Of a DNA stretch of 64,000 bases, positions 3,565-64,000 are shown one piece after another. A model generated the notes under the pieces. It made no database searches, was not told the origin of the DNA, and saw nothing but the letters and a program-made list of their open reading frames with translations. Origin of the DNA: a phage. The DNA lies in assembly GCA_014435945.1 (NCBI GenBank), contig GCA_014435945.1_4088.1; one strand, given 5' to 3'. A program made the position numbers and the translations under genes. Every line of letters starts with the position of its first letter. The stretch's first letter is position 1.

Positions 3565-3565
3565 A

Positions 3566-15514: not shown

Positions 15515-15524
15515 GTTGACAAAC

Positions 15525-15575
15525 TCATTCAGTACTGTATAATGTTTATCAAGGGGATGAACTTCTCATCCCCAC
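15525..15575 (+). promoter_or_regulatory. sigma70-like promoter (TTGACA..AGTACTG-TATAAT) followed by leader hairpin GGGGATGA/TCATCCCC
   Basis: Seen directly. Confidence 0.55.
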
Positions 15576-15590
15576 AATCGAGGAATTGTC

Positions 15591-42692: not shown

Positions 42693-42764
42693 ATTTCCCT
42701 CCTTTATTCATTATACTATATTTAATCAAAAATAAAAGCCAGTACTCTGTACTGGCATATTAAT
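42693..42764 (-). promoter_or_regulatory. array intergenic cassette (hairpin 42738-42756)
   Basis: Seen directly. Confidence 0.65.
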
Positions 42765-49124: not shown

Positions 49125-49410
49125 AATCATATGTAGTCATAAGTAATCATATATAAACATTTAAGTAATCATTTATAATCACAGTAGTGATCAGTAGTGA
49201 GTACTAGAGTGTAATAGAGTGTAATAGAGTACAGGAATGTGCACGTTTAATCAAGAACGTAGCAGTACTGCCCCAAAAGTATTCAGTACTGAAGGTGTCG
49301 ATATGCCACTAAGTAGGCAGAGGAAGTCTGCCGTACTTTGTAGTTTCCAAGCTCCTTTTCCATTTTGCAAATTACATCAAATGTAATCAAAAGTAATCAC
49401 GCAATGATTA
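49125..49410. repeat. cluster of short direct repeats (GTAATCA about 6 times; AGTGTAATAGAGT twice)
   Basis: Read directly in ORF-free region. Confidence 0.5.
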
Positions 49411-49448
49411 GTACTGAATTATTACTTTCACCTTAATTACAATTACCC

Positions 49449-49468
49449 TTTTACCCTTCGGGGTAAAA
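49449..49468 (+). other. perfect hairpin TTTTACCC-TTCG-GGGTAAAA (UUCG tetraloop) with no T-run
   Basis: 8-bp inverted repeat. Confidence 0.5.
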
Positions 49469-49686
49469 TTCCATTACCCCTTGAGGCTCCAGCAAAAAGT
49501 TGGTTAGTACTCCATCCTAAATCTCGATCCTAAAAATTTTGGAGTACCTATGAAATAAAAGTTGGATCTTCGAAAGTTGAAATTTACGTTGGGACGTTTA
49601 TGATTTGTGGGATATAATGATGTTTGTAGTCGGGTAGTTCTCAAGAATATCAGTACTGAATGGTGAAAGAAAGTTATTGACATTAT

Positions 49687-49716
49687 GATTCAGTACTGTA
49701 TAATGTTCTACATAGA
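49687..49716 (+). promoter_or_regulatory. orphan sigma70-like promoter (TTGACA-N17-TATAAT) with no ORF for over 1 kb
   Basis: ttgacattatgattcagtactgtataat. Confidence 0.45.
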
Positions 49717-50029
49717 GAGATGAGTTGCTGCGAACAATTCATTTACTCTACCTCCTGTCGTGAGACAGTACAGAAAAGATAGTTCCTCCTATTGGTGGTG
49801 CATCTTTTTGAACCTCATATGAAAATCGTAATAACAGTACTGATATTAACAGAATGGTATTAGTACTGATTTTAATCTAAAGCATTATGCCACCAGCTTG
49901 TGCTGGTGGATTCCCTCTAACAGTATTCAGTACTACATGATGGTCTTCATCCTCCTAGGGTAACATAGTGAGGGCTATGATGGCAGTACTGAATACTCCT
50001 TTCACAAGATAGATCTATGGTATAGTACT

Positions 50030-50225
50030 GACGGATTTTGGGCGTAGTTACCCTGGGTGGATTTTGGACGTAGATATGTCTAGCCCTCCAGAAGTCTGGA
50101 AGTAAAGATGGCTATCCATCTAGACGGCTAAACGGCTAGATTTCTAGATGGCTGTATGGCTAGACGTTTGGACGGCTAAACGGCTAGATGGTTACACGTC
50201 TGGATGTATAGACGGCTAAATCAAA
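50030..50225. repeat. iteron-like direct repeats: GACGGCTAAACGGCTAGAT twice (50123-50141, 50171-50189), partial copy at 50211, and GGATTTTGG(G/A)CGTAG twice
   Basis: Read directly. Confidence 0.6.
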
Positions 50226-50916
50226 ATTTTTATTTTGTTTTTTCCAATAGTTCCCCTACCGCGTGGGGATAGTTTCCCCGCAGTATCTGGAGTTAGATTT
50301 TTCTGAATCTGGAATCATTATCCCCGTTTTAGCCTGGTATGTCAACCGCCTGGATGAATATTTTTAAAAAATAATCTAGTACTGAATTTTGGGCGTAACT
50401 ATGCACCCGGTGGGCTTGAGTCTTTCTCGACTTGATGGAACTATTATACAGTACTGGAAAAATAAAGCAATACCCTGGAAGCAAAAAAGTTTTAATTAAT
50501 TTGCTTGCTATCCTGGGCCGGACTATGGTACTATATTTCAGTACTGAGAAAGTGCGTTTACCTGCTAGGGTGCGGGAGTGTATCCTTTTTAAATTTACTG
50601 AATTTTGGGCGTAATTCCGCACCCCCAGGGGTATCCGCTTTCTCGCGTCTATGTAGTAATTATACGCTTTTTCGGTGCTGAGTCAATAGCTAAAAACAAA
50701 ATAATTGAAAATAATTTAACGCGTTTAAACGGCCCGTAAAGCCCTGGTTAGCTGGTGGCGGTGCAAATGTATAGCTTAGGTGTATTAATGCGTTAGAATG
50801 CGATTGAGGACGTTTTACGGGGTATAGTACTGATTCAGTACTGAAAGATTGTTCTCCCTGGATTGTTCCAGTACTCCTATATAGAAAGAAAACTATTTTA
50901 AAAGTATTTGTAGAAA

Positions 50917-50950
50917 GTACTTGCAAAGTATTGGGAAAGGTGTAGAATGT
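50917..50950 (+). promoter_or_regulatory. sigma70-like promoter (TTGCAA-N16-TAGAAT) followed by leader hairpin
   Basis: Seen directly. Confidence 0.5.
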
Positions 50951-51005
50951 TTTACATCGAGACGGGGGATACGCTCCCGACTCACTTTTAAAAGAGATTA
51001 AAACG

Positions 51006-51368
51006 ATGGCGACTCAAATCAATACTATCATGCTTAACCTGGTTTCTTTCCGTGAAGAGATGAAAGATCTTCCCGCTGAGACTGTACGGATTCACATTGC
51101 AGCTTATCGGGAATTGATTGCAATGCTGCCGCTTAAGCGTGAACAGTACGCCGCTACTGCAATGCTGGACGCAATGATACATAAGATGATCCAGACTGAT
51201 TTAACGATGGCTTATCAGTACATGGGCGAAATGTTTGCAGTGTATAGCAAGCCAGTACCAGGAATGGAAAGTACAGAAGTATTACACGGCTTAAACTTAA
51301 AACAAGATGCATGGGATAATATGCCTCGTTTCCTGGTATGGGCTGATAGTGGAAAGATTTACGAATAA
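51006..51368 (+). CDS. hypothetical protein
   Basis: ORF track; promoter and hairpin upstream. Confidence 0.5.
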   Translation: MATQINTIMLNLVSFREEMKDLPAETVRIHIAAYRELIAMLPLKREQYAATAMLDAMIHKMIQTDLTMAYQYMGEMFAVYSKPVPGMESTEVLHGLNLKQDAWDNMPRFLVWADSGKIYE

Positions 51369-51375
51369 GTTTTTA

Positions 51376-51440
51376 AAAGTACTTGCAAAGTAAGTTTAAA
51401 GGCGTATAATACTTTACATCAGGTGGGGAATAGTTCCCCA
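51376..51440 (+). promoter_or_regulatory. right-region promoter unit: AGTACTTGCAA(-35)-N16-TATAAT then leader hairpin GTGGGGAA-tag-TTCCCCAC
   Basis: Same unit recurs before most genes from 51 to 64 kb. Confidence 0.6.
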
Positions 51441-51461
51441 CTATATAAGAGGATTAAAAAA

Positions 51462-51701
51462 ATGGCTAAATCAAAAATGTTCTTAGGTCACAAAAACAAA
51501 ACTCAATGGAATGTAAGCCTTTGGATTAATAACGACGAATCATTATACCGGTTGGCCCAGGACTTTATTGCCGCTAACACTAATCGTAATGATGCGGCCC
51601 GTCATATGATGCTATTTTTAGAACAGACTGGACAAGATAAAACGCCGGACGGCTTTAAGTATAGCACTACTGCGATCCGTGCGGCGATGGTTGGAATGTA
51701 A
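51462..51701 (+). CDS. hypothetical protein; paralog of 53854..54093
   Basis: Shared GHKNKTQWNVSLWINN..ESLYRLAQ...TPDGFKYSTTAIRAAMVGM. Confidence 0.55.
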   Translation: MAKSKMFLGHKNKTQWNVSLWINNDESLYRLAQDFIAANTNRNDAARHMMLFLEQTGQDKTPDGFKYSTTAIRAAMVGM

Positions 51702-51784
51702 TAGAATATATTAAAAGTACTATTGCACGGTGATAGTACTTTATAATAGTGTTTTATTCATACACCAACGATAAGGGTAACAGC

Positions 51785-52051
51785 ATGAATATTATATATT
51801 TTGCGACGCGTGAACAAGCTCGGATCGCCGCACGCCAGGACGGGGCGACGTTTAAAGATATGGGCGTACAATCGGAACGTGGTAAACGTTGGGCCATTGT
51901 AAAGCGTAGTACCGCCAGATCATTACAGTACTGGTTAGCGGCCTTAAAAAGACCCGATAGTGTATCGCGACGAGTGGTAGAAATAAAGCTCGACCGAAAG
52001 GGCAACCGCGTGACCGTGTACCGTACTAAAAAGATTGCAGTACTTGAATAA
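51785..52051 (+). CDS. hypothetical basic protein
   Basis: Internal ATG with AAGGG SD. Confidence 0.45.
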   Translation: MNIIYFATREQARIAARQDGATFKDMGVQSERGKRWAIVKRSTARSLQYWLAALKRPDSVSRRVVEIKLDRKGNRVTVYRTKKIAVLE

Positions 52052-52138
52052 AAAGTACTTGCAAACTAAGTTTAAAAGCGTATAATGTTTTACATCGAGA
52101 GCGGGAATAGTTCCCGCCTATAACCTGGAGTAATAAAA

Positions 52139-52369
52139 ATGACTAATATGTATATGACTGAAGTTAAAACCGTAAAAGATACTACCACTAATAAAACTAC
52201 TTACTTACAGCGGATCTGTGGTGTATGGCAACGTATCAGAAAATCAAAGTACTTTAAATTAACATCATATGCAAACCGTTCGGATTCATTCAGTACTGAA
52301 ATAAAAGGTAATAAAGTACACCAATACGGCACTTATTATTATTATAGCCTGGACGCGATTGCAGTATAA
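52139..52369 (+). CDS. hypothetical protein
   Basis: ORF track; promoter unit at about 52061. Confidence 0.45.
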   Translation: MTNMYMTEVKTVKDTTTNKTTYLQRICGVWQRIRKSKYFKLTSYANRSDSFSTEIKGNKVHQYGTYYYYSLDAIAV

Positions 52370-52639
52370 GCAGTTTACAAATCTTTACAATTGCCAGTAT
52401 TGACTTATTTTGTCAGTACTGGCATAATGTATTCATTGGCAGATAAGCCGTAGCCCATAGGGTGCGGAAGTGTATCTATAGAAAAAGTAGTTTAGTACAG
52501 TTACAATTGTGCACCCGGTGGGTTAGCTGTTGTCATGGGGTATATTATACCAGTACTGGATAGTGCTGTCAATACTTTTTTTACTATTCAGTACTGAAAA
52601 ACTATTTGATAAAAAGTACTTGCAAACTATGTTTAAAGG

Positions 52640-52735
52640 CGTATAATGTTTTACATCAGGACGGGGAACGAAATAAGTAACTTCCCGTTAAGTAGCCCAG
52701 GAGTAAGGCACACGAAAAACTCCCCTGATAAAATA
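52640..52735 (+). ncRNA. candidate structured RNA element between tandem promoters (copy 1)
   Basis: About 90-nt segment nearly identical to 63797-63885; compensatory change in ACGGGG/CCCCGT stem. Confidence 0.35.
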
Positions 52736-52797
52736 GTTTGACAATTGTTTTTAAAAGCGTATAATACTTACATAAACTACTGAATGAGGGTTACAAA

Positions 52798-53409
52798 ATG
52801 AAAACTATCACTACTACTACTTATGTTATGGATTTTTCTGAATTGAACGCAGAACAAAAAACGTCAGCTATCGAACTAGTTCGGGAACGTGAAAAAAACT
52901 CAAACGACGATTATTTTTCTGAAAGTGAAATTGAACACTATAAAGAAACAGTATTGCCGGAATATGGCATTAATGACGCTGAAATACAATTCAGTGGTTT
53001 TTGGTCCCAGGGTGACGGTGCATCAATCAGTACTGACCACGTTGACGCAGTGAAGTTTTTACGCAAGGTAAGAGCATTAACTAAGTATCGCTCAATCCGT
53101 CACCTGCTGAATGAAGATGATTTGGCGATGAGTGTAAAGCGTTCGCACTCCCACTACTCGCATGAGAATACTGTAAGCGGGTACATTGAATCGGCTTACA
53201 CTGATTTAACCGCAAAACAAGAAACGTTAGTTAATGAGCTTGAGGAACTACTCACTGACACTATTCGTGAATTATCCCGCAAGTTGTACCGTGATTTAGA
53301 GAATGCATATGAGGATCAATTCACTACTGAAAACATTACGGCACTGATTGAGGGTAACGAATATCAATTCAATGTTATTGATGGCGTAGTAGAATCAATC
53401 GAATATTAA
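52798..53409 (+). CDS. hypothetical acidic protein (203 aa)
   Basis: ORF track; SD GAGGG. Confidence 0.5.
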   Translation: MKTITTTTYVMDFSELNAEQKTSAIELVREREKNSNDDYFSESEIEHYKETVLPEYGINDAEIQFSGFWSQGDGASISTDHVDAVKFLRKVRALTKYRSIRHLLNEDDLAMSVKRSHSHYSHENTVSGYIESAYTDLTAKQETLVNELEELLTDTIRELSRKLYRDLENAYEDQFTTENITALIEGNEYQFNVIDGVVESIEY

Positions 53410-53502
53410 TTTAAAAAGTACTTGCAAACTAAGTTTAAAGGCGTATAATACTTTATATCGAGGCGGGGAGTGGTTCCCCGCTCATACTAAAAGGGTAACA
53501 AA

Positions 53503-53769
53503 ATGAAAACTTTAAATATCACAACTGCACATCAATTGGTTCGGGATGCGATGGATCATGTGCAAGATTTCTTCCCTGATGTAAGTGTAGTGACTTATGA
53601 AAAAGGTACTTGGACTTATTCAACAATTAACGGTTATGAGCCTGATTTTGATGATCTGGAAGAAATGGAATTTAATTTTGATCTGCTGAATGATGCCGCC
53701 CGTGAAGTGGGAAACGATGTTCAATACATTGATGGAGTAGTCGCACCTGATGCCGTAAAAGGATTATAA
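53503..53769 (+). CDS. hypothetical acidic protein
   Basis: ORF track; promoter unit upstream. Confidence 0.5.
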   Translation: MKTLNITTAHQLVRDAMDHVQDFFPDVSVVTYEKGTWTYSTINGYEPDFDDLEEMEFNFDLLNDAAREVGNDVQYIDGVVAPDAVKGL

Positions 53770-53853
53770 AAGTACTTGCAAACTAAGTTTAAAGGCGTAT
53801 AATACTTTATATCGAGGCGGGGAGTGGTTCCCCGCTCAAACGAGGATTAAAAA

Positions 53854-54093
53854 ATGGCTAGTACTAAAACTTACAACGGGCACAAAAACAAAACTCATTG
53901 GAATGTTTCCTTATGGATTAATAACGGTGAGTCATTGTATCGGCTTGCTCAAAGTTGCATCGCACAAAGTAGAACTAAAGATATTGCTGCGGAATGTATG
54001 TACCGCAGATTAAAAGCCAACGGTACTACTACAACGCCGGACGGATTCAAGTATAGCACTACGGCGATCCGTGCTGCAATGGTTGGAATGTAA
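53854..54093 (+). CDS. hypothetical protein; paralog of 51462..51701
   Basis: Shared motifs; identical promoter unit. Confidence 0.55.
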   Translation: MASTKTYNGHKNKTHWNVSLWINNGESLYRLAQSCIAQSRTKDIAAECMYRRLKANGTTTTPDGFKYSTTAIRAAMVGM

Positions 54094-54151
54094 TATTCAG
54101 TACTGTAACAATGGCGGGGAATGGTTCCCGCCTTTATTGAGGGTTTATCTA

Positions 54152-54412
54152 ATGAGTAAAGTAATTAACTATACAGTACTAAGCAAGTCATTATCTATTA
54201 GCCAGTGCACCGATGGTTATTGGTTTTATGATGAAACGCGTGGAATGAATTTAGCTATGCGTGCAAAAACTGCTGAGGCGGCGTATCTTGAGGCACTGGA
54301 ATACTACCAGGAACGTTTAACGGAAGTAGAAGAAGATTATAAAAGCCTCAAAGCGAAAGTAGATCATTTCGTCGGTCAATTCATCGAGGAAGACGCCGAC
54401 AAACAATATTGA
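54152..54412 (+). CDS. hypothetical protein
   Basis: Internal ATG with GAGGG SD. Confidence 0.45.
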   Translation: MSKVINYTVLSKSLSISQCTDGYWFYDETRGMNLAMRAKTAEAAYLEALEYYQERLTEVEEDYKSLKAKVDHFVGQFIEEDADKQY

Positions 54413-54498
54413 AAAAGTACTTGCAATTAGTTTTCAGTACTGTATAATGGTTTACATCAAAGGGAGAAATGGTTCTCCCTGGTAATGAGGAAAATAAA

Positions 54499-54720
54499 AT
54501 GGCTAATATCACTACTCTTTCCCAACTGGAAGCACTGGTTAAATCTATGCGGGAACATGCCGACAAAATCGGCGTACAAGATCCAGCCGTTTGCTTCTGC
54601 GACGAATTGAATGATGATACCCTGGTAATAGCAGAAGTCCAGGACGTTTCTAACTATTCCTCGCGTTACACTGGCGGCGTAGCAAATAAAGGTGACTTCT
54701 GTTTATACCTTACAAAATAA
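54499..54720 (+). CDS. hypothetical protein
   Basis: ATG after SD GAGGA. Confidence 0.5.
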   Translation: MANITTLSQLEALVKSMREHADKIGVQDPAVCFCDELNDDTLVIAEVQDVSNYSSRYTGGVANKGDFCLYLTK

Positions 54721-54963
54721 CAACGCGGGGAGATAATAACTCCCCGTTACTTTTTCAGTACTGAATCATTTAATAGACGGATCTCGGCACCCGGTGGGTT
54801 AGTGACTGTTTCGTCTTGATGTAGTAATTATGCCAGTACTGGATGCACTTGTCAACAATTATTTTCCAAATACTTTTTATTAAAATACTTGCTATTAGTT
54901 TTTAAACGCGTATAATGTTTTGCATAGGGGGAGCGGTTCCCCTGGTAACTAAGGAATAAGAAA

Positions 54964-55200
54964 ATGGTCGAACAAATCAAATCAACGTCTTCGAATGTAA
55001 CGGGAACGGTAGCACACTTTACTAGTGATGAATCGCGGGGCGTTCCCTATTGTGCTGTACATGTAAACACTGAGGGTAACTACTGGTTTACGGTTTACGG
55101 ATCATATTCATTTGGACGGCCAGGGCATCAAAAAATTCTGGATAAAGTACAACCAACGGGTAAAAATATCACTGCCGAAATGTTTTATAAAAAATCATAA
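54964..55200 (+). CDS. hypothetical protein
   Basis: ORF track. Confidence 0.5.
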   Translation: MVEQIKSTSSNVTGTVAHFTSDESRGVPYCAVHVNTEGNYWFTVYGSYSFGRPGHQKILDKVQPTGKNITAEMFYKKS

Positions 55201-55284
55201 AGTACTTGCAATTAGTTTTTAGTACTGTATAATATTTTACATCGCAAGGGGAAACGGTTTCCCCTGGTAACTAAGGATAATCAA

Positions 55285-55584
55285 ATGAAAGTAGCAATCA
55301 TCGCCCTGGCTTTATCTGTTTCCTCTTTCGCTGTTAATGCGTCGTTAGATGTACCTGGTGATAAATTCATTCAGTGCACCGTAGCAATGACAGATGAAAG
55401 TACTGGCGAGATTGTATTAAAGGATTTAGAGATCCAGCCGGAAGCATTTAAAAACGGCCCGTTCCATGAAGAAGACGAAAACGGTAGCACAACAATTTAT
55501 TATGATGCCAGTACTAAACGTGGTTCTGTCACTGTAATGGATACGGAGAAAGTAACTCACACCGGAGTAATTAACTGTTTATAA
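55285..55584 (+). CDS. secreted protein (signal peptide)
   Basis: N-terminus MKVAIIALALSVSSFAVNA. Confidence 0.55.
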   Translation: MKVAIIALALSVSSFAVNASLDVPGDKFIQCTVAMTDESTGEIVLKDLEIQPEAFKNGPFHEEDENGSTTIYYDASTKRGSVTVMDTEKVTHTGVINCL

Positions 55585-55666
55585 TAGTTTGACTATGTAT
55601 TACAGTACTGTATAATAGATACATAAGGGGCGAATAGTTTGCCCCTGGCATAAAGGGGAAAACATT

Positions 55667-55897
55667 ATGACAGCACGAATTGTTTTACTTAACGCTGGAA
55701 GTACTACACAACTCCTTAACGCCGTGCATTATGATATTGAAACGAGCGTTAATCTTATCAGTACTGTAGTACTATTGGACACTGGAAAGGTCGCCAATGA
55801 TAAAGCGATTGCAGGTATACTAACTGATCTCAAGCCTGGTAGCAGTACGCCAATAACGTTAAATGGCAAAGTGTTTAATATTTTACTTACTGATTAA
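55667..55897 (+). CDS. hypothetical protein
   Basis: ORF track. Confidence 0.45.
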   Translation: MTARIVLLNAGSTTQLLNAVHYDIETSVNLISTVVLLDTGKVANDKAIAGILTDLKPGSSTPITLNGKVFNILLTD

Positions 55898-55903
55898 GTA
55901 CAT

Positions 55904-55926
55904 AGCCCACCTGGTGGGCTTTTTTG
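55904..55926 (+). terminator. intrinsic terminator AGCCCAC-ctg-GTGGGCT plus T5
   Basis: Inverted repeat and T-run. Confidence 0.65.
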
Positions 55927-55994
55927 TTTTTGTAGTATCGTAGTACTGAGATACTTTAAAAATAGTTTTAAAAAAGTAGTTGACATTACCACAA

Positions 55995-56085
55995 AAAGGC
56001 GTAGAATGTATTACATCAAGACGGGGAGCACTAAGTAGACCGCCAGTAAGTCGAACGAAAAACTGGACACGTCGAGAAAACTTTG
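55995..56085 (+). ncRNA. candidate structured RNA element, divergent copy
   Basis: Shares acgggga...aagtag.cc..cagtaag..acgaaaaact with 52640 and 63797. Confidence 0.25.
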
Positions 56086-56130
56086 ATACACTAATAAACG
56101 TAAACTAAACTTTAATTGAGGATTTATAAA

Positions 56131-56613
56131 ATGGCTAATGTAAAATCATTCATCAAAGCACTGGTAGCAAATGAAACTAACGTCGCGGCAGAGATCCTGG
56201 CTGAACTGGATAACGATACCATGAAAGCGGTACGCAATAATTTTAACATCGCGTACAGTACTGCGAAAGAACTACAAGCAAATAAAGCGGCAGAAATTGA
56301 AGCGGCAAAGGCGGCCCGTGAAGCAGAACTACAAGCAACAATCGAAAGTATTCAGGCGGCAGTAGTTGGATTGGATCTGGAAGTAGTTACAGAGATGGCA
56401 CAAAAAGCCCTGGCGGTTAAGTATGGGGAAGACAAGCCAGAAGTAAAAGCCAAAAAATGGATTCAGGAACGCGTAGCGGTAGTACTGGACAACGGGGAAG
56501 AATATCTGATTCCGGTGCGTGGTAACTGCATTGCGGTAGTACTGGATGCGATTAACTCCAGTGGTATGACTCGCGAGGAATGGATCGAAGCTCATCGCAA
56601 AGTTGAAGCATAA
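56131..56613 (+). CDS. hypothetical Ala/Glu-rich protein
   Basis: ATG after SD GAGGA; track start 56116 is TTG. Confidence 0.5.
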   Translation: MANVKSFIKALVANETNVAAEILAELDNDTMKAVRNNFNIAYSTAKELQANKAAEIEAAKAAREAELQATIESIQAAVVGLDLEVVTEMAQKALAVKYGEDKPEVKAKKWIQERVAVVLDNGEEYLIPVRGNCIAVVLDAINSSGMTREEWIEAHRKVEA

Positions 56614-56634
56614 CAATTAAAGTACTGAATCACT

Positions 56635-56662
56635 AGCCCACCTTAAACGGTGGGCTTTTTTG
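56635..56662 (+). terminator. intrinsic terminator AGCCCACC..GGTGGGCT plus T6
   Basis: Inverted repeat and T-run. Confidence 0.65.
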
Positions 56663-56898
56663 TGTTTATCGTTTACCAGCTCCACATCACCGCCTAGAAA
56701 CGATTCTAACGCATTAAACTGATTATCTGATGCATTGCCCTAGCTGGTGGCGTTAAGGTCGTTGTAATGCGATTGAGAGCGTTTAAAGTATTTTGCAAAA
56801 AGTAATAAAAAGTACTTGCACGATTAAGAGATTAGCGTATAATGTTTTACATCGAGAGGGGGAAACGGTTCTCCTTCCAAATCAAAGGAATAAAAACA

Positions 56899-57126
56899 AT
56901 GGCTATTATCATTACTCGCGTATCTGGTACTACTGGCAACGAACAAGTAGTTGCAGTCATTACCAACAAGGAAGGTGCGGAATTGCAAAATGCAATGAAT
57001 ACCTGGGCCGTTAATGAGTTCGGTCAGTGGGCAAGTGTAGCATACATTGAAACCTATCAAGTGCCGTCGATTAGTTTAACTGATTTGGGCGTTGAGCGTA
57101 TCCTTTGCCTGGATGAATTAAATTAA
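56899..57126 (+). CDS. hypothetical protein
   Basis: ATG after SD AAGGAA. Confidence 0.5.
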   Translation: MAIIITRVSGTTGNEQVVAVITNKEGAELQNAMNTWAVNEFGQWASVAYIETYQVPSISLTDLGVERILCLDELN

Positions 57127-57212
57127 AAAAAGTACTTGCAAAGTAAATCGAATAAAGTATAATACATTACATCAAGGGGAGAAATGGTTCTCCCCACTAC
57201 AAGGAAACTAAA

Positions 57213-57356
57213 ATGAAAACTTGTCAATGTGGTCAGAAATCTATTACGGGTTTAAAGCGGGGCGTTGCTCTTTGCCAGTACCATTATAATTTACAAGTAT
57301 GGGGTAAAGAATGGGCCGACCAGGTGGAAGCAGCAAAGAAAGCAAAAAGTAAGTAA
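57213..57356 (+). CDS. putative 47-aa Cys-containing basic protein (MKTCQCGQKS...KAKSK)
   Basis: Read manually; promoter, hairpin and SD upstream. Confidence 0.4.
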   Translation: MKTCQCGQKSITGLKRGVALCQYHYNLQVWGKEWADQVEAAKKAKSK

Positions 57357-57435
57357 AAATATTATCACAGTACTATTGACATAGTTTGATAGTACTGGCA
57401 TAATAGATTTTATCAAGACAACTGAGGAAAATAAA

Positions 57436-57648
57436 ATGGCTATCATCACTAAAATCAAAGTTAACAAATCACTGGTTAAGCTGGAAGAAGTGAAAGAAGG
57501 TTATAAAGTATCTTGGTGCGGCATGTATCGGATATTCACTGATATTGATGACGCAATCAATTATTACAGCGACACGGTTAAAAACTTTGTTCGTGCTGAT
57601 GTGGTTATGGCAGTGGCAACGCACAAAGCAGCGAAAGAAAGTAAGTAA
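57436..57648 (+). CDS. hypothetical protein
   Basis: ORF track; same 3' end and downstream promoter as 57213..57356. Confidence 0.5.
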   Translation: MAIITKIKVNKSLVKLEEVKEGYKVSWCGMYRIFTDIDDAINYYSDTVKNFVRADVVMAVATHKAAKESK

Positions 57649-57737
57649 AAATATTATCACAGTACTATTGACATAGTTTGATAGTACTGGCATAATAGAT
57701 TTTATCAAGACAACATATTAATTTAAGGAATACAAAA

Positions 57738-58061
57738 ATGGCTAAAACTATCATTAACACCGTTTCCCTGGCTGCAATCCGTGCAATCAATGTTGACGGT
57801 AAACGTTGGACTGATTCATATGGCAATACTTATCATTCTTGTCATGTAAGCGTTGAACTGGATAACGGTTTGAATGATCTGGCGGTTGAATCATTTACTT
57901 ATGGCTATGAAGATGCATATCAACAAACGGCGTTATCTCTCTTAAAGGAATCAGTAGACGGGCTTAATACTGATGAAACCTCCCTTACTCGTGTGTGCAA
58001 TGATCTTAATATCCCGTTGCATTGTACTGTACAGAATGTTAAACGCAAAAAAGATCTTTAA
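57738..58061 (+). CDS. hypothetical protein
   Basis: ORF track. Confidence 0.5.
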   Translation: MAKTIINTVSLAAIRAINVDGKRWTDSYGNTYHSCHVSVELDNGLNDLAVESFTYGYEDAYQQTALSLLKESVDGLNTDETSLTRVCNDLNIPLHCTVQNVKRKKDL

Positions 58062-58141
58062 TTAGCTTTACTTTATGCAGATACTTTGATATAGTGTCTG
58101 CATAGGGGAAAGAAATTAAATTAACTTAAGAGGATCGTATA

Positions 58142-58411
58142 ATGAAAAATATCAGTACTTTAATCGATGCAGGTACTCATGTTCGTCGGTCTATGGTTGC
58201 AACCAGTACTACAAAACAAGTAGCGAGCGGTTATCTTGTATTTGTGCACGATGGTAAACTCCTGGAACGTTCAATCAATTTTGATGTTAAAAACAATTGC
58301 CGTTTTATTATCTTTAAGCGTGAGCAATATAAAATTGATTTACCAGCAAAGCCCATTAGTGGGGCGTACAACGTGCAATCATTGTTTGAACGTCAACCAT
58401 ACACCTATTAA
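58142..58411 (+). CDS. hypothetical protein
   Basis: ORF track; SD GAGGA. Confidence 0.5.
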   Translation: MKNISTLIDAGTHVRRSMVATSTTKQVASGYLVFVHDGKLLERSINFDVKNNCRFIIFKREQYKIDLPAKPISGAYNVQSLFERQPYTY

Positions 58412-58462
58412 TCAAAACATCGTTAGCGGTCGATTCAGGCCGCTTATATTGGGGATTATACC

Positions 58463-58735
58463 ATGAACGTTAATCAAGTACTGAATGAGATCGAAAGCAT
58501 CATTAAACCGATGAAGCGTACTGATGCTATGTTAACACCGGAAGAATGCCGCCTTTATGAGCGTTACAGCGTCGAACAAGTCCAGGCAATGGCTATGGCT
58601 ACCCCAGCCGTTAAACCGCCTGAGAATGCGTTACAGGACGTTACAGGGGATTATATCATCAATCCAGTACTAGGGAAGATGGCTGCAATCACCGAAGATC
58701 AACAAGACTACTTAAGCCAGTACTTAAAAGGTTAA
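58463..58735 (+). CDS. hypothetical protein
   Basis: ORF track. Confidence 0.5.
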   Translation: MNVNQVLNEIESIIKPMKRTDAMLTPEECRLYERYSVEQVQAMAMATPAVKPPENALQDVTGDYIINPVLGKMAAITEDQQDYLSQYLKG

Positions 58736-58740
58736 TTAAT

Positions 58741-58950
58741 ATGCTTACTGTACAGGATAAGATCGACATCTTAAAGGTTAATATGTATGTGATTGATGCC
58801 GTACCTGGTAAAGTATTTGCATACGATGACACTACTGTAAGCGATTTCTACTATAGCCAGGCCGTGGGGGATCTTTCTGTACAGTCGGTTATTGAAAACG
58901 TAGTTAATGCAGCGTATGAGCATTTACTTTCAAATAGTACTTGCAATTAG
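58741..58950 (+). CDS. hypothetical protein
   Basis: ORF track. Confidence 0.45.
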   Translation: MLTVQDKIDILKVNMYVIDAVPGKVFAYDDTTVSDFYYSQAVGDLSVQSVIENVVNAAYEHLLSNSTCN

Positions 58951-59019
58951 TTTTTAAACGCGTATAATGTTTTACATGAAGGGGAGAAATGATTCTCCCC
59001 ACTAATTAAGGAATATGAA

Positions 59020-59166
59020 ATGAAAGCATCAAAAAAGAGTACTAACAAGAAAGCACGTTCAACCTTAGATGGGGTATTCCCTTTACGTTTTGTTGATGAA
59101 GTAGTTTCCTACCCGCCGGGCCTTACTCCTGAGATGGTAGAAAGTTTGCGTAAATCTAAAAAATAG
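59020..59166 (+). CDS. putative 48-aa basic protein (MKASKKSTNKKARS...)
   Basis: Read manually; promoter, hairpin and SD AAGGAA upstream. Confidence 0.4.
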   Translation: MKASKKSTNKKARSTLDGVFPLRFVDEVVSYPPGLTPEMVESLRKSKK

Positions 59167-59248
59167 TACTTGCAATTAGTTTTTAGTACTGTATAATAGT
59201 TTACATGAAGGGGAAAACGTTCCCCTTACACCTAACGAGGAAAGTATA

Positions 59249-59500
59249 ATGGAAACAATTTTAATCAAAGACACTGCTACTACTGTAACTTATGATAATG
59301 ATTGCATTATCCCAGGGACTGAGTACGGCGAACGTGTACCCGTTCAAGTAGAGATTGATACCACATACATCGACAAGGCTGACCAGTGTATCACTATTGT
59401 AATTGGTGAATATCGTTTTCTACCAGAAGAGATCCAAAAATGGCAGAATATGATTGACCGTGCGAAATTAGTCGCACAAAGTTTAAAATACAAAGTTTAA
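59249..59500 (+). CDS. hypothetical protein
   Basis: ORF track. Confidence 0.5.
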   Translation: METILIKDTATTVTYDNDCIIPGTEYGERVPVQVEIDTTYIDKADQCITIVIGEYRFLPEEIQKWQNMIDRAKLVAQSLKYKV

Positions 59501-59586
59501 AATAATACTTGCAATTAGTTTTTAAACGCGTATAATGTTTTACATGAAGGGGAGAAATGATTCTCCCCAATAACAGGAGAAACAAA

Positions 59587-59739
59587 ATGAAACAATACAA
59601 CGCTCGGTTTGATGTTACTATCGGTAACGGCAAAGGTCAATTCTCTTTCAGTACTCGCAAAAGTTATACAGAAAACTTCCTGCGTAATTGTGCACTGACC
59701 GCCGCACAAATTAAACATTACTTTCAGGCTAAAAAATGA
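59587..59739 (+). CDS. putative 50-aa protein
   Basis: ATG after SD AGGAGA. Confidence 0.4.
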   Translation: MKQYNARFDVTIGNGKGQFSFSTRKSYTENFLRNCALTAAQIKHYFQAKK

Positions 59740-59825
59740 AATCATTAGCTTATTACAGTTCGGCCCTGGTCGGTGCATTGATCGCGGCATTGTTAGTAAC
59801 CTATCTATTCTTTATGGTGATTTAA
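59736..59825 (+). CDS. putative 29-aa single-TM peptide (MKSLAYYSSALVGALIAALLVTYLFFMVI)
   Basis: Read manually; ATGA overlap with upstream stop. Confidence 0.3.
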   Translation: MKSLAYYSSALVGALIAALLVTYLFFMVI

Positions 59826-59969
59826 ATGAATCCAACAGGCTTAAATTATAAAAGTTGTTCGGCGTTTACGAAAGCAAATAAAGCGAATGCACGTAAAGCG
59901 AAAGTACAGGAATACATCAAGCAAGGCATGACGCGAAAGGCGGCGATTCTAAAAGCTAAAAATAAATGA
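59826..59969 (+). CDS. putative 47-aa basic protein
   Basis: Read manually; directly follows previous stop. Confidence 0.35.
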   Translation: MNPTGLNYKSCSAFTKANKANARKAKVQEYIKQGMTRKAAILKAKNK

Positions 59970-59974
59970 AAAAA

Positions 59975-60010
59975 GTGGTTGACTCCGGTCAGCCATTTTG
60001 CTATTATATA
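59975..60010 (+). promoter_or_regulatory. PeSL-like terminator-promoter cassette
   Basis: gtggttgactccggtcagccattttgctattat. Confidence 0.6.
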
Positions 60011-60179
60011 TTCATTGAGAGATAGCTCACTAGCCCACAGGGTGCATAAGTGTATCTATTATATAAGTATTGAGTACTGAAAACTATTTTTAAAAAGTAC
60101 TTGCAAACTATCTCAATAAGCGTATAATGTTTTACATCGCAAGGGGAAATGGTTTCCCCTGGTAATAAGGAAACGAATC

Positions 60180-60521
60180 ATGACTATCTCAATTGCTCAA
60201 TCTAACTTTGAAAATGAAATCATCGCCCAGGCACTGCGTTTAAATGATGGTCGGGCCGAAATTAATTACGGTTTCAATTCAGGCGGTTGTGAAAAATATC
60301 AGTACTTTGTAACGGCTGATGGCGGTGTCCTGGGGATCAATACAGTTATTGTAAACATTCAGAAAATTAATTTCAATGATCCAGAAGATAGCCAGTTTTA
60401 CATCACGGGCGTGAACGTGAACTATGAGGATGATTATCTAACTGATGATCACACTGGCGAGAAGTTAGAAAGTGCATACGGTGAAGATGATTATCAGTCC
60501 GGTCCAGAAGATTTCGAATAA
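60180..60521 (+). CDS. hypothetical acidic protein
   Basis: ORF track. Confidence 0.5.
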   Translation: MTISIAQSNFENEIIAQALRLNDGRAEINYGFNSGGCEKYQYFVTADGGVLGINTVIVNIQKINFNDPEDSQFYITGVNVNYEDDYLTDDHTGEKLESAYGEDDYQSGPEDFE

Positions 60522-60616
60522 TATAAAAAATAGTTTGACAATAGATTATAGTACTGTATAATAGTTTACATCAAGGGGAGAGATGATTCTCCCCACTAAC
60601 AGAGAGAGAAAACAAA

Positions 60617-60799
60617 ATGGCTGAATTAATCGCTCGGAATACAATTGAAGGCATTGAAGATGTAACGTTGTCCTATGATTCAGATAAAAAAGTTTATGTT
60701 GTTCGTTATGGTTTGATTGGTGTTAACGTTGATTATATTGATGAAGCCTTTGAAAAATACTTTGAATTTATTAATATGGCTTATAATGATTATCGTTAA
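60617..60799 (+). CDS. hypothetical protein
   Basis: ORF track. Confidence 0.5.
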   Translation: MAELIARNTIEGIEDVTLSYDSDKKVYVVRYGLIGVNVDYIDEAFEKYFEFINMAYNDYR

Positions 60800-60889
60800 A
60801 AAATAGTTTGACAATAGTTTTAAGTACTGTATAATAGTTTTCATCAAGGGGAGAAAAACTTCTCCCCACTAACAGAGAGAGAAAGCAAA

Positions 60890-61102
60890 ATGGCTAATAT
60901 CTGCACTGTACTGAAAAATGCAAAACAAGTTTTATTTTCTGATCACGATCATTTAAACAAGGATATTACGGGCGTTCGGAATATCAAAGATGTAAAAAGT
61001 GTTATGGGTATCTATTGCAATATGAAACGTGTTGGTACGTTCGGCGACAAAGTACTATACCAGGCAGGGGATTATAACTTTACATTAACCATTATCAATT
61101 AA
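60890..61102 (+). CDS. hypothetical protein
   Basis: ORF track. Confidence 0.5.
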   Translation: MANICTVLKNAKQVLFSDHDHLNKDITGVRNIKDVKSVMGIYCNMKRVGTFGDKVLYQAGDYNFTLTIIN

Positions 61103-61192
61103 AATATATTACCAGTACTATTGACAACGTTTGATAGTACTGTATAATAAGTTTTATAAACAGTAGTTAACTTAACCTAAGAGAGAAACAAA

Positions 61193-61336
61193 ATGATCGC
61201 ACTGGATTCATTCATCGACGCAGTACTGGCAAAAACTGGCGAGGATCTGACCGCAGAACAATACGCGATGATCGAGCAATGTCAGCAAAACGGTAAATCG
61301 GTGAAAGATACTGTTAAGATTATCCGCAAGATGTAA
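61193..61336 (+). CDS. putative 47-aa protein (MIALDSFIDAVLAK...)
   Basis: Read manually; promoter at 61120-61150; SD GAGAGA; terminator follows. Confidence 0.4.
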   Translation: MIALDSFIDAVLAKTGEDLTAEQYAMIEQCQQNGKSVKDTVKIIRKM

Positions 61337-61342
61337 GATTAT

Positions 61343-61370
61343 AGCCCACTGGTTAACGCTGGTGGGCTTT
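61343..61370 (+). terminator. probable terminator hairpin AGCCCAC..GTGGGCT with short T tail
   Basis: Inverted repeat. Confidence 0.45.
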
Positions 61371-61441
61371 AATCATTTACCCTATACAATGCCAGTACTA
61401 AACCGTTTATCTCGTTAGAATGCGTTACAGGACGTTTAACA

Positions 61442-61639
61442 ATGATTAGCATGAAATCAGTACAAAAACAAATAGAAACATTATCAAAAATTAAACGTAA
61501 ACAATACTCCTTAGAATATACAATCAATGGTAACTATCATCTAATGAAAGAAAATAATTTTATAGTCATTGATGAATCATTGCAAATTATTAGTATAGTA
61601 CTGAAAGCATTAATCAATGACAGAAAAAAATTAAAATAA
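61442..61639 (+). CDS. hypothetical protein
   Basis: ORF track. Confidence 0.4.
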   Translation: MISMKSVQKQIETLSKIKRKQYSLEYTINGNYHLMKENNFIVIDESLQIISIVLKALINDRKKLK

Positions 61640-61968
61640 TCTATTGACAATATCCTCCAGTACTGGCATAATACTTACATCAAGACGAGAACGTCACTAA
61701 CCCATAGGGTGCACAAATGTAACTATATAATATCGATCAATAAATGATCAAAAAAGTACTGGATCAATTTAGCATAAGGAGTATAATTCTGATCAATTCT
61801 TGATCAAAGGCAATAAACGCAGTTGAATTTATATAGACAATACAAAGGCGTTACTATCCGTGGTAATGCTGGTGGATATGTAGTATCATATGGTTTGAAT
61901 AAGATAAACACTAGTAGTATTATTGTAGCATTACAGTACTATAGTATTTTTATAATGAGGTTAAAATA

Positions 61969-62226
61969 ATGGCTGTAGGATTTGCGAAGGACGGGGCCGA
62001 ACAAGACGAGATTAACGCAGTGATTCAGGCCGCTGTAAACCACGCTAGAAAGCAAATTAACGCACAAAGAGAATCACTGGTACATTGCCTCGACTGCGGC
62101 GATAAAATTCCTGAGAATCGACGCCAGGCCGTTATAGGGTGCATGTATTGTATTACTTGCCAGGAGGATCATGATAGTACTTTTAAAAGAGATCCGCGTA
62201 ATTGTTGGCATAGATCTATGAGATAA
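61969..62226 (+). CDS. TraR/DksA-family C4 zinc-finger protein
   Basis: CLDCGDKIPENRRQAVIGCMYCITCQ matches the CxxC-N17-CxxC DksA/TraR signature. Confidence 0.7.
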   Translation: MAVGFAKDGAEQDEINAVIQAAVNHARKQINAQRESLVHCLDCGDKIPENRRQAVIGCMYCITCQEDHDSTFKRDPRNCWHRSMR

Positions 62227-62290
62227 AAAGTAATTGACAGTACTGAAAGATAGTGTATAATGTTTTATATCTTAACTGAGGATAGAAATC

Positions 62291-62647
62291 ATGGGAATAC
62301 AACATATCACGCGTACTACTGACAATGGCGAGATCACTGGTTATCAAGTACAGGGCAAAGTAGCACAATTGCAGTACTGGTTTGTTAAACGTGGAATCAT
62401 TGCACCGGATCTTGATTATGACCGTGTAGCGTTTATTGATTCTCTTTATGTTGATCCTGATAGTCGGGGCAATGGTGAAGGTAACGAATTAATGAATGCC
62501 TTTATCGATGCCGCCGATGATTCAGATTGTATCATCTTAGAATGCGATACGGGAGAAGATAACGCCTTTAATCTTAAAGAATGGTACGAAGGTTTCGGAT
62601 TCGAGGTATTGATAGATAGTGAATATCCTATCATGATTTTATCATAG
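62291..62647 (+). CDS. possible small GNAT-like acetyltransferase
   Basis: Weak motif-A-like segment VDPDSRGNGEGNELMNAF. Confidence 0.35.
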   Translation: MGIQHITRTTDNGEITGYQVQGKVAQLQYWFVKRGIIAPDLDYDRVAFIDSLYVDPDSRGNGEGNELMNAFIDAADDSDCIILECDTGEDNAFNLKEWYEGFGFEVLIDSEYPIMILS

Positions 62648-62725
62648 TACTTGCATTTAGTTTTCAGTACTGTTATAGTACTTGCATCAAGGGGAAACAT
62701 CTTCCCCTACTAAGAGGAAATAAAA

Positions 62726-62914
62726 ATGGAAAACTTATCAAGTATTTTAGTACAAGATGATTTCGGTAATCCTGGAAGTGCTATCATTGTTCGGGGTAAT
62801 AAAGCAACGTTTGTTATTGCTGGTGGACCCGTACAGCGTAGCATTAAAAATAATGCTGTTACCATTAATAATGTACGCTATCGCTTAGATAAAGAATTAA
62901 TTCATAAACTGTAA
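62726..62914 (+). CDS. hypothetical protein
   Basis: ORF track. Confidence 0.5.
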   Translation: MENLSSILVQDDFGNPGSAIIVRGNKATFVIAGGPVQRSIKNNAVTINNVRYRLDKELIHKL

Positions 62915-62999
62915 AAAAGTACTGGACAATAGATTATAGTACTGTATAATAAGTTACATGAAGGGGAGAAATGATTCTCCCCACTAAGAGGAAAGAAAA

Positions 63000-63212
63000 A
63001 TGCAAGGTCAACTAATCGTTCGTAAATGGTCTGATACTAACGCTAAACCGTGGGATGTACAATACATCGCCCCCAATGGTGAATCACGTTATCAGCCAGG
63101 TGTAACGCATAGTACTGAGCAATTCGCCGCCGCTCACCGTGAACGCCTGTTACAATCAATGCAGCAAGGTTTCGGTGAAAAATTCATTCAGGATCATTGG
63201 CTGAAAGATTAA
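63000..63212 (+). CDS. hypothetical protein
   Basis: ORF track. Confidence 0.5.
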   Translation: MQGQLIVRKWSDTNAKPWDVQYIAPNGESRYQPGVTHSTEQFAAAHRERLLQSMQQGFGEKFIQDHWLKD

Positions 63213-63298
63213 AAAGTACTTGCACTGTACTGAATAAAGTGTATAATGTTTTATATCGGAAGGGGAATAGTTCCCCTCCGAACAAAGAGGAAAGTATA

Positions 63299-63472
63299 AT
63301 GGTCCAGGTAGAATTAACAGTACTGAAAGATCTGTTTTATCGGATTGGTACTACTGGCGAATATCCGAAGGGTGATAATGCAAAACTTTACGTATCACTC
63401 GACTTATGGCAACGCGAACAATTAGCAACGGCCTGGCGTAAAGGCAAAGCAGATAGCGAGGTGAAAGCATGA
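63299..63472 (+). CDS. hypothetical 57-aa protein
   Basis: ATG after SD AGAGGAAAG. Confidence 0.45.
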   Translation: MVQVELTVLKDLFYRIGTTGEYPKGDNAKLYVSLDLWQREQLATAWRKGKADSEVKA

Positions 63473-63618
63473 AAGAATTCTTATTTGAAGTAGTGTTTCA
63501 AGGTGTCGGTAGTAACCAACTGATTCGCTCAAGTGGTTATAATGTTAACCAGGCATGGAATAACATTAAACAAATGTACCCGAACGCTATCACATATCGC
63601 AACCCGAAAGAAGTTTAA
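63469..63618 (+). CDS. putative 49-aa protein
   Basis: Read manually; ATGA overlap with upstream stop. Confidence 0.35.
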   Translation: MKEFLFEVVFQGVGSNQLIRSSGYNVNQAWNNIKQMYPNAITYRNPKEV

Positions 63619-63634
63619 AAATAATTGAAAAAGG

Positions 63635-63668
63635 GATTGACTCCGGTCAGTCCCTTTGCTATTATATA
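63635..63668 (+). promoter_or_regulatory. PeSL-like terminator-promoter cassette
   Basis: gggattgactccggtcagtccctttgctattat. Confidence 0.6.
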
Positions 63669-63796
63669 CGCATAGAAACAAATCAGCCCACAGGGTGCAT
63701 AAATGTATCTATTGTTTGCTGGTGGCTAGTACTGAAAACTATTTTTAAAAAGTACTTGCATTGTACTTAGAATAAAGTATAATGTTTTACATCAGG

Positions 63797-63885
63797 ACGG
63801 GGAACGAAACAAGTAACCCCGTTAAGTAGTCCAGGAGTAAGACATACGAAAAACTCCCCTGATAAAATAGTTTGACAATAGAAAG
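63797..63885 (+). ncRNA. candidate structured RNA element between tandem promoters (copy 2)
   Basis: Near-identical to 52640-52735. Confidence 0.35.
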
Positions 63886-63931
63886 TAAAAGAGTATAATA
63901 CTTACATCAACCACTGATAAGGAAACATAAA

Positions 63932-64000
63932 ATGCGGATTCTACTGACAGCTAACGAAATCGAACAAGTACTGACTACTAACCTGGAAGACTGGAAACGT
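63932..64000 (+). CDS. hypothetical protein, 3'-truncated by window end
   Basis: ATG after SD AAGGAAA; open to the edge. Confidence 0.35.
   Translation, partial: MRILLTANEIEQVLTTNLEDWKR

Follow-up and report, generated by a model that had tools for sequence, protein, structure and literature searches.

Promoter/stem-loop cassettes, the so-called PeSLs, have been described in the T4-like phages RB49/phi1, T4/PST and KVP40/nt-1 (Arbiol et al. 2010, PMC2839356; Comeau et al. 2014, PMC4122927). Each of these repeated intergenic units, ~70-100 bp long, contains a strong sigma-70 early promoter with an AT-rich part upstream of it, a stem-loop of a G-run and a C-run that includes G·T pairs, and a Shine-Dalgarno sequence with the ATG. 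They are concentrated in hyperplastic regions rich in small ORFans and coincide with insertion, deletion and replacement breakpoints of close relatives. Here, we describe a family of cassettes with all of these features in a 64,000-nucleotide stretch of phage DNA (NCBI GenBank assembly GCA_014435945.1, contig GCA_014435945.1_4088.1; the whole stretch is called the window in the following). They differ in the position of the stem-loop: in the five subclasses of PeSLs it is located upstream of, within or right before the transcription start of the promoter, whereas in the window it is found in the 5' untranslated region (UTR), downstream of the inferred start. As the stem-loop resides in the 5' UTR, with the start taken from promoter A1 of phage T7, the cassettes fall outside the positional definition of PeSLs. 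They also differ in being without terminator features, in belonging to Rak2-like jumbo and rV5-like phages and in their location in a long direct terminal repeat. These leader hairpins are not described in the searched papers on 121Q/PBECO4, CBB, RaK2, phAPEC6, fENko-Kae01, fEgEco12 and rV5; we found no earlier description of them in Asteriusvirus, Rak2-like or rV5-like phages, and they are a variant of the PeSL-type cassettes. With a probability of about one half, we propose that they are self-contained early-expression cassettes with an RNA-protecting or insulating leader hairpin, which double as recombination modules.

In each cassette, an A-rich/AAGTACTT element lies upstream of a near-consensus sigma-70 promoter and a start region like that of T7 A1. 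The G/C-clamped stem-loop, within the first ~30 nt of the predicted transcript, a short AU-rich spacer and the Shine-Dalgarno sequence complete the unit. A first-pass annotation made from the sequence alone had reported the promoter motif and the hairpin before almost every gene at 51-64 kb. The motif AAAAGTACTTGCAA-N16-TATAAT was recovered with 20 matches at ≤3 mismatches (0.02 expected), 19 of them on the + strand between 50,913 and 63,783, and the example hairpins were found at 51423, 53463 (also 53817), 55248 and 58981 (also 59549 and 62963), with an offset of 0-3 nt from the reported positions. The wording "almost every gene" was too generous, because the 20 promoter-plus-hairpin cassettes between 50.9 and 63.3 kb serve 20 of the 34 open reading frames (ORFs) of this interval. 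The other ORFs have hairpin-less promoters or long leaders or, for a few genes, lack an own promoter; promoters without a hairpin are located at 51.7 kb, 52738, 57376, 57668, 61121 and 62234. A covariance model built from 22 window copies resulted in 23 window matches, none of them on the - strand: the interval of 50.9-63.3 kb holds 21 and, in addition, a long-leader variant at 52640, and the remaining match is at 15.5 kb. For the window together with five related loci, we counted 74 matches, again exclusively on the coding strand, and repeat finding sorted the cassettes into families of 15-22 copies.

The stems comprise 7-9 bp, usually in the form GGGGA.../...TCCCC, and enclose loops of 3-7 nt. 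Among 44 distinct hairpins, the loop sequence was not conserved and no GNRA-like loop was present. The stem starts 8-14 nt (median 12) past the -10 hexamer and ends at a median of 19 nt ahead of the ATG. Folding of the whole leaders gave a hairpin probability of ~1.0, with the Shine-Dalgarno/AUG region largely open. A search of Rfam yielded no match to the leader hairpins at the gathering score and just two chance matches to mir-1000 (E=0.32), and the tRNA search was negative.

To place the array in its genomic context, we compared the window with related genomes. The Asteriusvirus jumbo coliphages vB_Ec-M-J, G17, Ecwhy_1, PBECO4 and 121Q matched at 90-97 % identity (6-kb and 14.7-kb queries), and judged by this similarity the window is from an Asteriusvirus-type jumbo coliphage of the PBECO4/121Q group. 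Base 1 of vB_Ec-M-J aligns to window position 49312, the record of this phage is annotated with direct terminal repeats of 21,525 bp, and terminal repeats of 20,993 bp were experimentally confirmed for the related phage fEgEco12 (PMC13070987). Based on these three observations, the cassette array lies within the first ~15 kb of a ~21-kb terminal repeat. The window thus spans the junction from unique sequence to terminal repeat at 49312, the physical left genome end of vB_Ec-M-J, and extends 14.7 kb into the direct terminal repeat (49312..64000, + strand, by alignment to vB_Ec-M-J). Inside the repeat, small genes are separated by ~85-bp spacers, whereas directly beyond it the genes are packed or overlapping. 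With the exception of one copy at 15508..15590, the cassette family is confined to the terminal repeat, and all protein-coding cassettes are directed inward from the genome end.

The variable but complementary stems had been taken by the first-pass annotation as a sign of selection on RNA structure, and our covariation analysis bears this out. Alignment with MAFFT followed by RNAalifold recovered a core of just 5 bp, since the arms could slip along the G- and C-runs, and was replaced by a covariance-model alignment combined with folding of each single sequence. In this alignment 88 % of the cells were paired, and the number of double-change cells was 36 in contrast to 15.9±3.0 after shuffling (reached in 0/500 shuffles). 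Slid controls gave lower values, though not far off, which is due to the slipping of the G-runs. In an independent set of 26 matches from IMG/VR, compensatory change was observed in 7 of 8 pairs, the double-change cells amounted to 16 versus 5.6 in the shuffled controls (0/500), and the slid controls were clearly lower. Compensatory changes therefore exceeded the shuffled controls in both alignments. Folding of 43 distinct hairpins pointed in the same direction: the native arms reached a mean of -10.9 kcal/mol, compared to -7.7±0.23 kcal/mol for swapped arms (0/2000 permutations).

The same stems also differ between the two strands. Internal G·U pairs outnumbered internal A·C pairs by 19 to 1 in the 44 distinct hairpins, the sense strand was the more stable one in 12 cases and the antisense strand in one, and all 100 of 100 model matches (window, related loci and IMG/VR) were on the coding strand. 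Because duplex DNA would give no wobble asymmetry, selection acts on one strand of sense polarity. Unrelated stems occupy the same position in other lineages: Serratia phage BF has GGGTAAGC/GCTTACCC and ACAGGAGA/TCTCTTGT, the rV5-like phage W70 has GGGCGGC/GCCGCCC, and a contig of 345,809 bp has GGGAATGAA/TTCATTCCC and GGGGATACA/TGTATCCCT. Taken together, covariation and the unrelated stems in the same place indicate that the pairing, rather than the sequence, is conserved, and the selected structure is most simply a sense-strand RNA.

A role at the DNA level would have to come from the palindrome itself, either as an operator past +1, an alternative that the first-pass annotation had offered and that would involve a dimeric repressor, or as a cruciform or single-stranded DNA hairpin that stimulates recombination between cassettes. 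The sequence is indeed a palindrome beside the start site, the crossover in RB49 PeSL mini-circles was mapped within the loop (PMC2839356), and arm combinations such as GGGGGAA...TTCTCCC resemble exchange products of two hairpin types. Nevertheless, we regard this explanation as very improbable, since the excess of internal G·T over A·C is unlike a duplex constraint, half-site spacing, stem length and sequence all vary, and the model matches are restricted to the coding strand; a single-stranded DNA hairpin of the sense strand is compatible with these tests. For the operator in particular, fixed-spacing conserved half-sites with strand symmetry would be expected, and the hairpins have a variable GGGG-to-CCCC spacing, G·T wobbles and different stems in BF, W70 and the 345,809-bp contig.

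Another palindrome of the window, AGTACT, is its most over-represented hexamer (266 copies in 64 kb, ~23 expected, 11.5-fold). Its copies are spread over genes as well as spacers; among them are AAGTACTT at the -35 flank and CAGTACTG right before many -10 boxes. AGTACT could be the target of a DNA-binding or DNA-modifying factor and is a better operator candidate than the hairpin.

For the position of the transcription start, T7 provides the closest comparison. Several cassettes read TATAAT-gttttac-ATCGAGAGGG, and T7 A1 reads GATACT-tacagcc-ATCGAGAGGG with an annotated A start (NC_001604, 498). The element ATCGAGAGGG, corresponding to +1..+10 of T7 A1, is exact in cassettes such as 56808-56898, carries 1-2 changes in the cassettes at 50913, 52051 and 53414, and is represented by ATCAAGGGG or ATGAAGGGG in the other cassettes. 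The 7-nt gap from the -10 box to the A start is shared as well, and so is the AAAAAG..GTA..TTGAC-type upstream/-35 region of T7 A1 and A2. By this homology, we infer that initiation by host RNA polymerase takes place at the A of 'cATC', which lies 8 nt past the -10 box. Transcription starts prefer a pyrimidine at -1 and a purine at +1, which fits this A. With a start as in T7 A1, the hairpin would be transcribed, beginning at +1 to +7 (median +5), and the predicted 5' overhang would be mostly 3-6 nt (range 1-7, median 5). By the same comparison, a start downstream of the hairpin is unlikely.

The likeness extends to the leaders, as T7 A1 and A2 RNAs also have a hairpin of the GGGA...UCCC type at their very start, which begins at +2 (A1) or +1 (A2). 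The cassettes thus combine the two features of a T7 A1-type early promoter, ATCGAGAGGG 7 nt past the -10 box and a leader hairpin, although their hairpins differ from those of T7 in sequence and begin later, at about +4 to +8. To our knowledge, the T7 leader hairpins are without an assigned function. Both systems place tandem strong promoters at the first-entering genome end; in T7, three promoters (A2 start at 626) precede one operon with RNase III sites between the genes, whereas the window has ~20 cassettes and the full vB_Ec-M-J repeat 28, with one per gene.

The parallel to T7 raises the idea that the nascent hairpin forms behind RNA polymerase shortly after the enzyme has left a very strong promoter, acts on the polymerase itself by blocking backtracking and aiding clearance, and maybe supports a transcription-driven entry of the repeat like T7 A1-A3. 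The start region identical to T7 A1, a homologue of the T7 A1-to-A2 segment, the inward direction of all protein-coding cassettes and the hairpins at the beginning of the T7 A1/A2 transcripts are in agreement with such a role. However, this argument is purely analogical and hairpin-less promoters are interspersed in the array, which makes an effect on the polymerase a highly doubtful explanation.

Homologues of the T7 A1-to-A2 interpromoter segment are the 'long leader' modules, in which a leader of ~100 nt separates a first promoter from a second one. They are located at 52620-52765, 55980-56110 and 63756-63900 in the window and also occur in related loci (3563-3700 in locus L002 and 2993-3137 in the W70 locus L008). 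Their invariant motif, TAAGTAG-N8/9-TAAG-N-C-NN-ACGAAAAAC, is enclosed by a covarying stem (CCUG/CAGG, CCAG/CUGG, GGAG/CUCC or CUUG/CAAG). A pattern scan of IMG/VR for this motif resulted in 34 loci, of which ~30 were T7-like genomes and the remainder jumbo phages; in the T7-like genomes it is placed ~0.5 kb from the left end. The motif has no Rfam family, and a full-text literature search gave template listings and no functional account.

In the window, all cassettes are on the + strand. The array starts with cassette 1 (50913..51005), in which a TTGCAA-N16-TAGAAT promoter is followed by hairpin 50963-50979, the Shine-Dalgarno sequence and the ORF at 51006. Cassette 2 (51375..51461; hairpin 51422-51442) precedes ORF 51462, which encodes a DUF7249 protein, and cassette 3 (52051..52138; hairpin 52101-52117) precedes ORF 52139. 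Cassette 4 (53414..53502; hairpin 53462-53482) serves ORF 53503, a gene that is absent from vB_Ec-M-J, and shares its promoter and hairpin sequence with cassette 5 (53768..53853; hairpin 53816-53836; ORF 53854). A promoterless hairpin copy at 54113..54132 (+), followed by TTTATT and ORF 54152, was called terminator-like. Next in line are cassette 6 (54413..54498; hairpin 54461-54480; ORF 54499), cassette 7 with a TTGCTA promoter and an internal G·U pair (54881..54963; hairpin 54925-54944; ORF 54964) and cassette 8 (55198..55284; hairpin 55247-55265; ORF 55285). Cassette 9 (55581..55666), with a TTGACT promoter, hairpin 55626-55646 (GGGGCGAA/TTTGCCCC) and ORF 55667, is absent from vB_Ec-M-J and Ecwhy_1. 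The exact T7 A1 leader mentioned above is part of cassette 10 (56808..56898), which has two internal G·U pairs in hairpin 56856-56877 and serves ORF 56899.

The second half of the array comprises cassette 11 (57128..57212; hairpin 57176-57195; ORF 57213), cassette 12 (58933..59019; hairpin 58981-59000; ORF 59020) and cassette 13 (59162..59248; hairpin 59208-59227), whose gene at 59249 is missing in vB_Ec-M-J, G17, Ecwhy_1 and 121Q. These are followed by cassette 14 (59501..59586; hairpin 59549-59568; ORF 59587), cassette 15 (60093..60179; hairpin 60142-60160; ORF 60180) and two cassettes with a TTGACA promoter, cassette 16 (60527..60616; hairpin 60575-60594; ORF 60617) and cassette 17 (60800..60889; hairpin 60848-60867; ORF 60890). 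Cassette 18 (62643..62725; hairpin 62690-62708; ORF 62726) combines a TTGCAT promoter with a degenerate -10 box (TATAGT), cassette 19 (62915..62999; hairpin 62963-62982; ORF 63000) has a TGGACA promoter, and cassette 20 (63212..63298; hairpin 63261-63277; ORF 63299) ends the series. The sole cassette outside the terminal repeat (15508..15590) has a TTGACA promoter and hairpin 15553-15573 (GGGGATGA/TCATCCCC). A leader mini-ORF, ATGAAGGGGAGAAATGATTCTCCCCACTAA, was rejected as a candidate element, because it is confined to the ATG variants (58981, 59549 and 62963) and absent in the ATC variants.

The early genes served by the cassettes are small and mostly ORFans. Searches of ten early proteins against Pfam returned a DksA/TraR zinc finger, GNAT and DUF7249 as the sole matches and no RNA-binding candidate. 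The DksA/TraR-type zinc-finger protein and the GNAT acetyltransferase are encoded at 61969-62226 and 62291-62647 amid the ORFan early genes, and host-takeover roles are plausible for both. Two sets of duplicates are present in the array: a paralogous DUF7249 gene pair (51462-51701 and 53854-54093, with 2.4 kb between them) and a hairpin-less 77-nt promoter cassette repeated at 100 % identity (57346-57422 and 57638-57714). Both sets point to recent duplication or to gene conversion within the array. In vB_Ec-M-J, whose first coding sequence begins at base 1760, no gene is annotated in the initial 1.6 kb of the repeat (49.3-50.9 kb). At ~0.8 kb from the genome end, this part contains an array of 8-bp tandem units (50108-50219; ACGGCTAA, ATGGCTAG and ACGTCTGG), which may be iterons for packaging or replication.

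A comparison of the close relatives revealed how the cassettes take part in gene exchange. Despite 94-97 % identity in the shared parts, none of the related genomes covered at least 80 % of these 14.7 kb at a single location. Chained alignments to vB_Ec-M-J, G17, Ecwhy_1 and 121Q yielded 46 distinct breakpoints, 26 of them inside promoter-plus-hairpin cassettes, whose share of the region is 13 %; several further ones are located inside hairpin-less promoter cassettes. At a typical junction, one gene and one cassette are present or absent between genomes, and the alignments overlap by the length of a cassette. Such indel genes are 53503, 59249 and an extra vB_Ec-M-J gene at 2217, and 53503 is flanked by cassettes 4 and 5 with their identical promoter and hairpin sequence. 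Gene gain, loss and replacement between relatives thus break inside the cassettes.

The cassettes are not restricted to Asteriusvirus. W70 and A7_1, rV5-like coliphages of 137-145 kb from the Vequintavirinae, share several cassettes and genes at 69-90 % identity and have the same layout of one cassette per gene, and this similarity implies that early modules are exchanged between unrelated phage families. As breakpoints fall inside the cassettes and the cassettes recur in rV5-like phages, they behave like PeSLs. Looking back at the first-pass annotation, its reading of selected RNA structure was supported and its operator alternative was disfavoured; the terminal-repeat setting, the PeSL-like shuffling and the likeness to T7 A1 had escaped it.

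A stem-loop may also be a terminator or attenuator that limits read-through from the upstream cassette, as proposed for PeSLs, whose stem-loops lowered read-through in a lacZ assay (PMC2839356). In the window, the promoterless copy at 54113 with its TTTATT tail scores as terminator-like, and in the matching G17 region several intergenic gaps are annotated with terminators predicted by ARNOLD. Among the 20 promoter-linked hairpins, just one (50963) is marginally terminator-like and none has a clear U-tract, in contrast to genuine terminators nearby (54725, 55904, 56635, 59972 and 63630), which do carry U-tracts. Furthermore, a terminator past the promoter would also stop the own transcript of the cassette. 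An identity as intrinsic terminators was rejected on these grounds, with 54113 and, marginally, 50963 as the only ones that qualify, and we consider a terminator or attenuator role improbable for the family.

The classic PeSL layout is represented elsewhere in the window by composite terminator-promoter elements of the form AAAAGGGTTGACttcgGTCAGCCCTTTTTGCTATAAT, in which the terminator stem contains the -35 hexamer and the spacer is taken up by the T-run. They are located at 6457-6491, 10050-10085, 13058-13095, 17354-17391, 17937-17974, 19385-19421, 59972-60007 and 63630-63665. A further stereotyped regulatory element, built around GTAC, is a repeated terminator on the - strand, GCCAGTAC-N3/4-GTACTGGC followed by a T-run, which was found within 24623-42756 (at 24.6, 25.8, 30.5, 31.8, 33.0, 34.3, 35.5, 41.5 and 42.7 kb).

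In the proposed function as early-expression cassettes, one cassette per small gene would allow expression of the first-entering terminal-repeat DNA by host RNA polymerase. The hairpin would provide a 5'-proximal RNA structure that shields early mRNA from 5'-end-dependent decay of the RNase E/RppH type, and could also protect the processed 5' ends of read-through transcripts. In addition, it would tie up the pyrimidine-rich arm, and with this arm locked the adjacent ribosome binding site would stay open whatever ORF is joined. The repeated ~85-bp cassette would at the same time be a portable block of homology for recombination, which would shuffle early genes within and between phage lineages in a PeSL-like manner. 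For the hairpin itself, mRNA protection or insulation is the most likely role by analogy with known stabilisers.

The principle of stabilisation by a 5' stem-loop is taken from the works on ompA, papA and RNase E that are cited in PMC3997798, among them those of Emory, Bouvet and Belasco. As predicted for the cassettes, the 5'-terminal stabilisers of the ompA 5' UTR, papA and the T7 gene 10 leader have, near the 5' end of the mRNA, a hairpin that is short, stable and independent of sequence, with an accessible ribosome binding site after it. Protection of the ompA type, studied by Emory et al. in 1992, reportedly requires a stem ~2-4 nt from the 5' end, compared to the predicted overhang of 3-6 nt in the cassettes.

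Several points weigh against this reading. As the predicted overhang is at the edge of the tolerance of ompA-type protection, the protection may be partial, and the function of the hairpin as a whole is deduced rather than observed. Hairpin-less promoters coexist in the same region, and most early promoters of the distant Serratia phage BF are likewise without a hairpin, so that the hairpin is an accessory element. The shuffle statistics given above overstate independence because the cassette copies share descent; nonetheless, the direction was the same in every test. Similarly, the breakpoint enrichment was scored on a uniform null, and selection against intragenic breaks alone favours intergenic ones. 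Finally, the GGGG...CCCC clamp is strongly conserved in Asteriusvirus, beyond the need of folding, which also fits recognition by a factor.

Such a factor could be an RNA-binding protein or an endoribonuclease, encoded by the phage or the host. It would bind GGGG(A)...(U)CCCC on every early transcript as a regulon-wide RNA operator, and would shut off expression, process the RNA or modify the polymerase, comparable to T4 RegB/RegA or lambda N-boxB. Besides the base of the stem, its position is conserved beyond folding need in Asteriusvirus, the element marks one temporal gene class confined to the terminal repeat, and GGAG is frequent in the 5' arm. These features have to be set against the loops, which are variable in sequence and length (3-7 nt) with none conserved, the wholly different stems in BF, W70 and the 345,809-bp contig, and the lack of a boxA-like partner and of a candidate binding protein among the ten early proteins searched against Pfam. 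Removal of the 5' arm in silico caused the 3' arm to pair with the Shine-Dalgarno sequence, with a small effect on accessibility (from 0.68 to 0.58) that is barely beyond the shuffled control (0.62), and a switch by occlusion through the 3' arm was not adopted. Altogether, we consider an RNA operator unlikely.

The lambda nut sites are similar in that a small hairpin of the nascent RNA is located shortly past early promoters. They differ in consisting of boxA and boxB, the latter with a 5-bp stem and a conserved purine-rich pentaloop, bound by N; the cassettes are without boxA or a conserved loop, and with a promoter before each gene there is little need for antitermination. A broader version of factor recognition is that the hairpins are a common RNA tag of the terminal-repeat early regulon, read by a putative phage or host factor. 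The reader may be an endoribonuclease or a translational repressor that turns early genes off, or else a protein that is loaded onto RNA polymerase. We consider such a tag unlikely. If true, tag and promoter would travel together between unrelated coliphage families (Asteriusvirus, rV5-like and T7-like) as a shared standard of early expression.

Besides the protein-coding cassettes, the window contains eight short units without an ORF. Each has a strong promoter of its own and a leader of ~25 nt, together with CCCAYNGGGTGC followed by ..GTAnCTAT. They are positioned at 50414(-), 50631(-), 52454(+), 52522(-), 54798(-), 60034(+), 61701(+) and 63687(+), with the units at 52454 and 52522 being convergent and overlapping. 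Serratia phage BF holds similar units. A search of Rfam gave no match to them, and they are candidate small RNAs.

Returning to the cassettes as early-expression units, the results outline a testable architecture for the expression of first-entering DNA in Rak2/121Q-type jumbo phages, with ~20-30 co-oriented T7-A1-like promoters in the terminal repeat and a structured leader behind every one of them. The PeSL idea, in which regulatory cassettes are modules that shuffle small host-takeover genes, is thereby extended past the T4-like phages to jumbo and rV5-like phages, with the same cassettes crossing phage family boundaries. On the practical side, the cassettes are compact expression units that are predicted to be insulated and very strong, and they mark the most plastic genome part of phages used in therapy.

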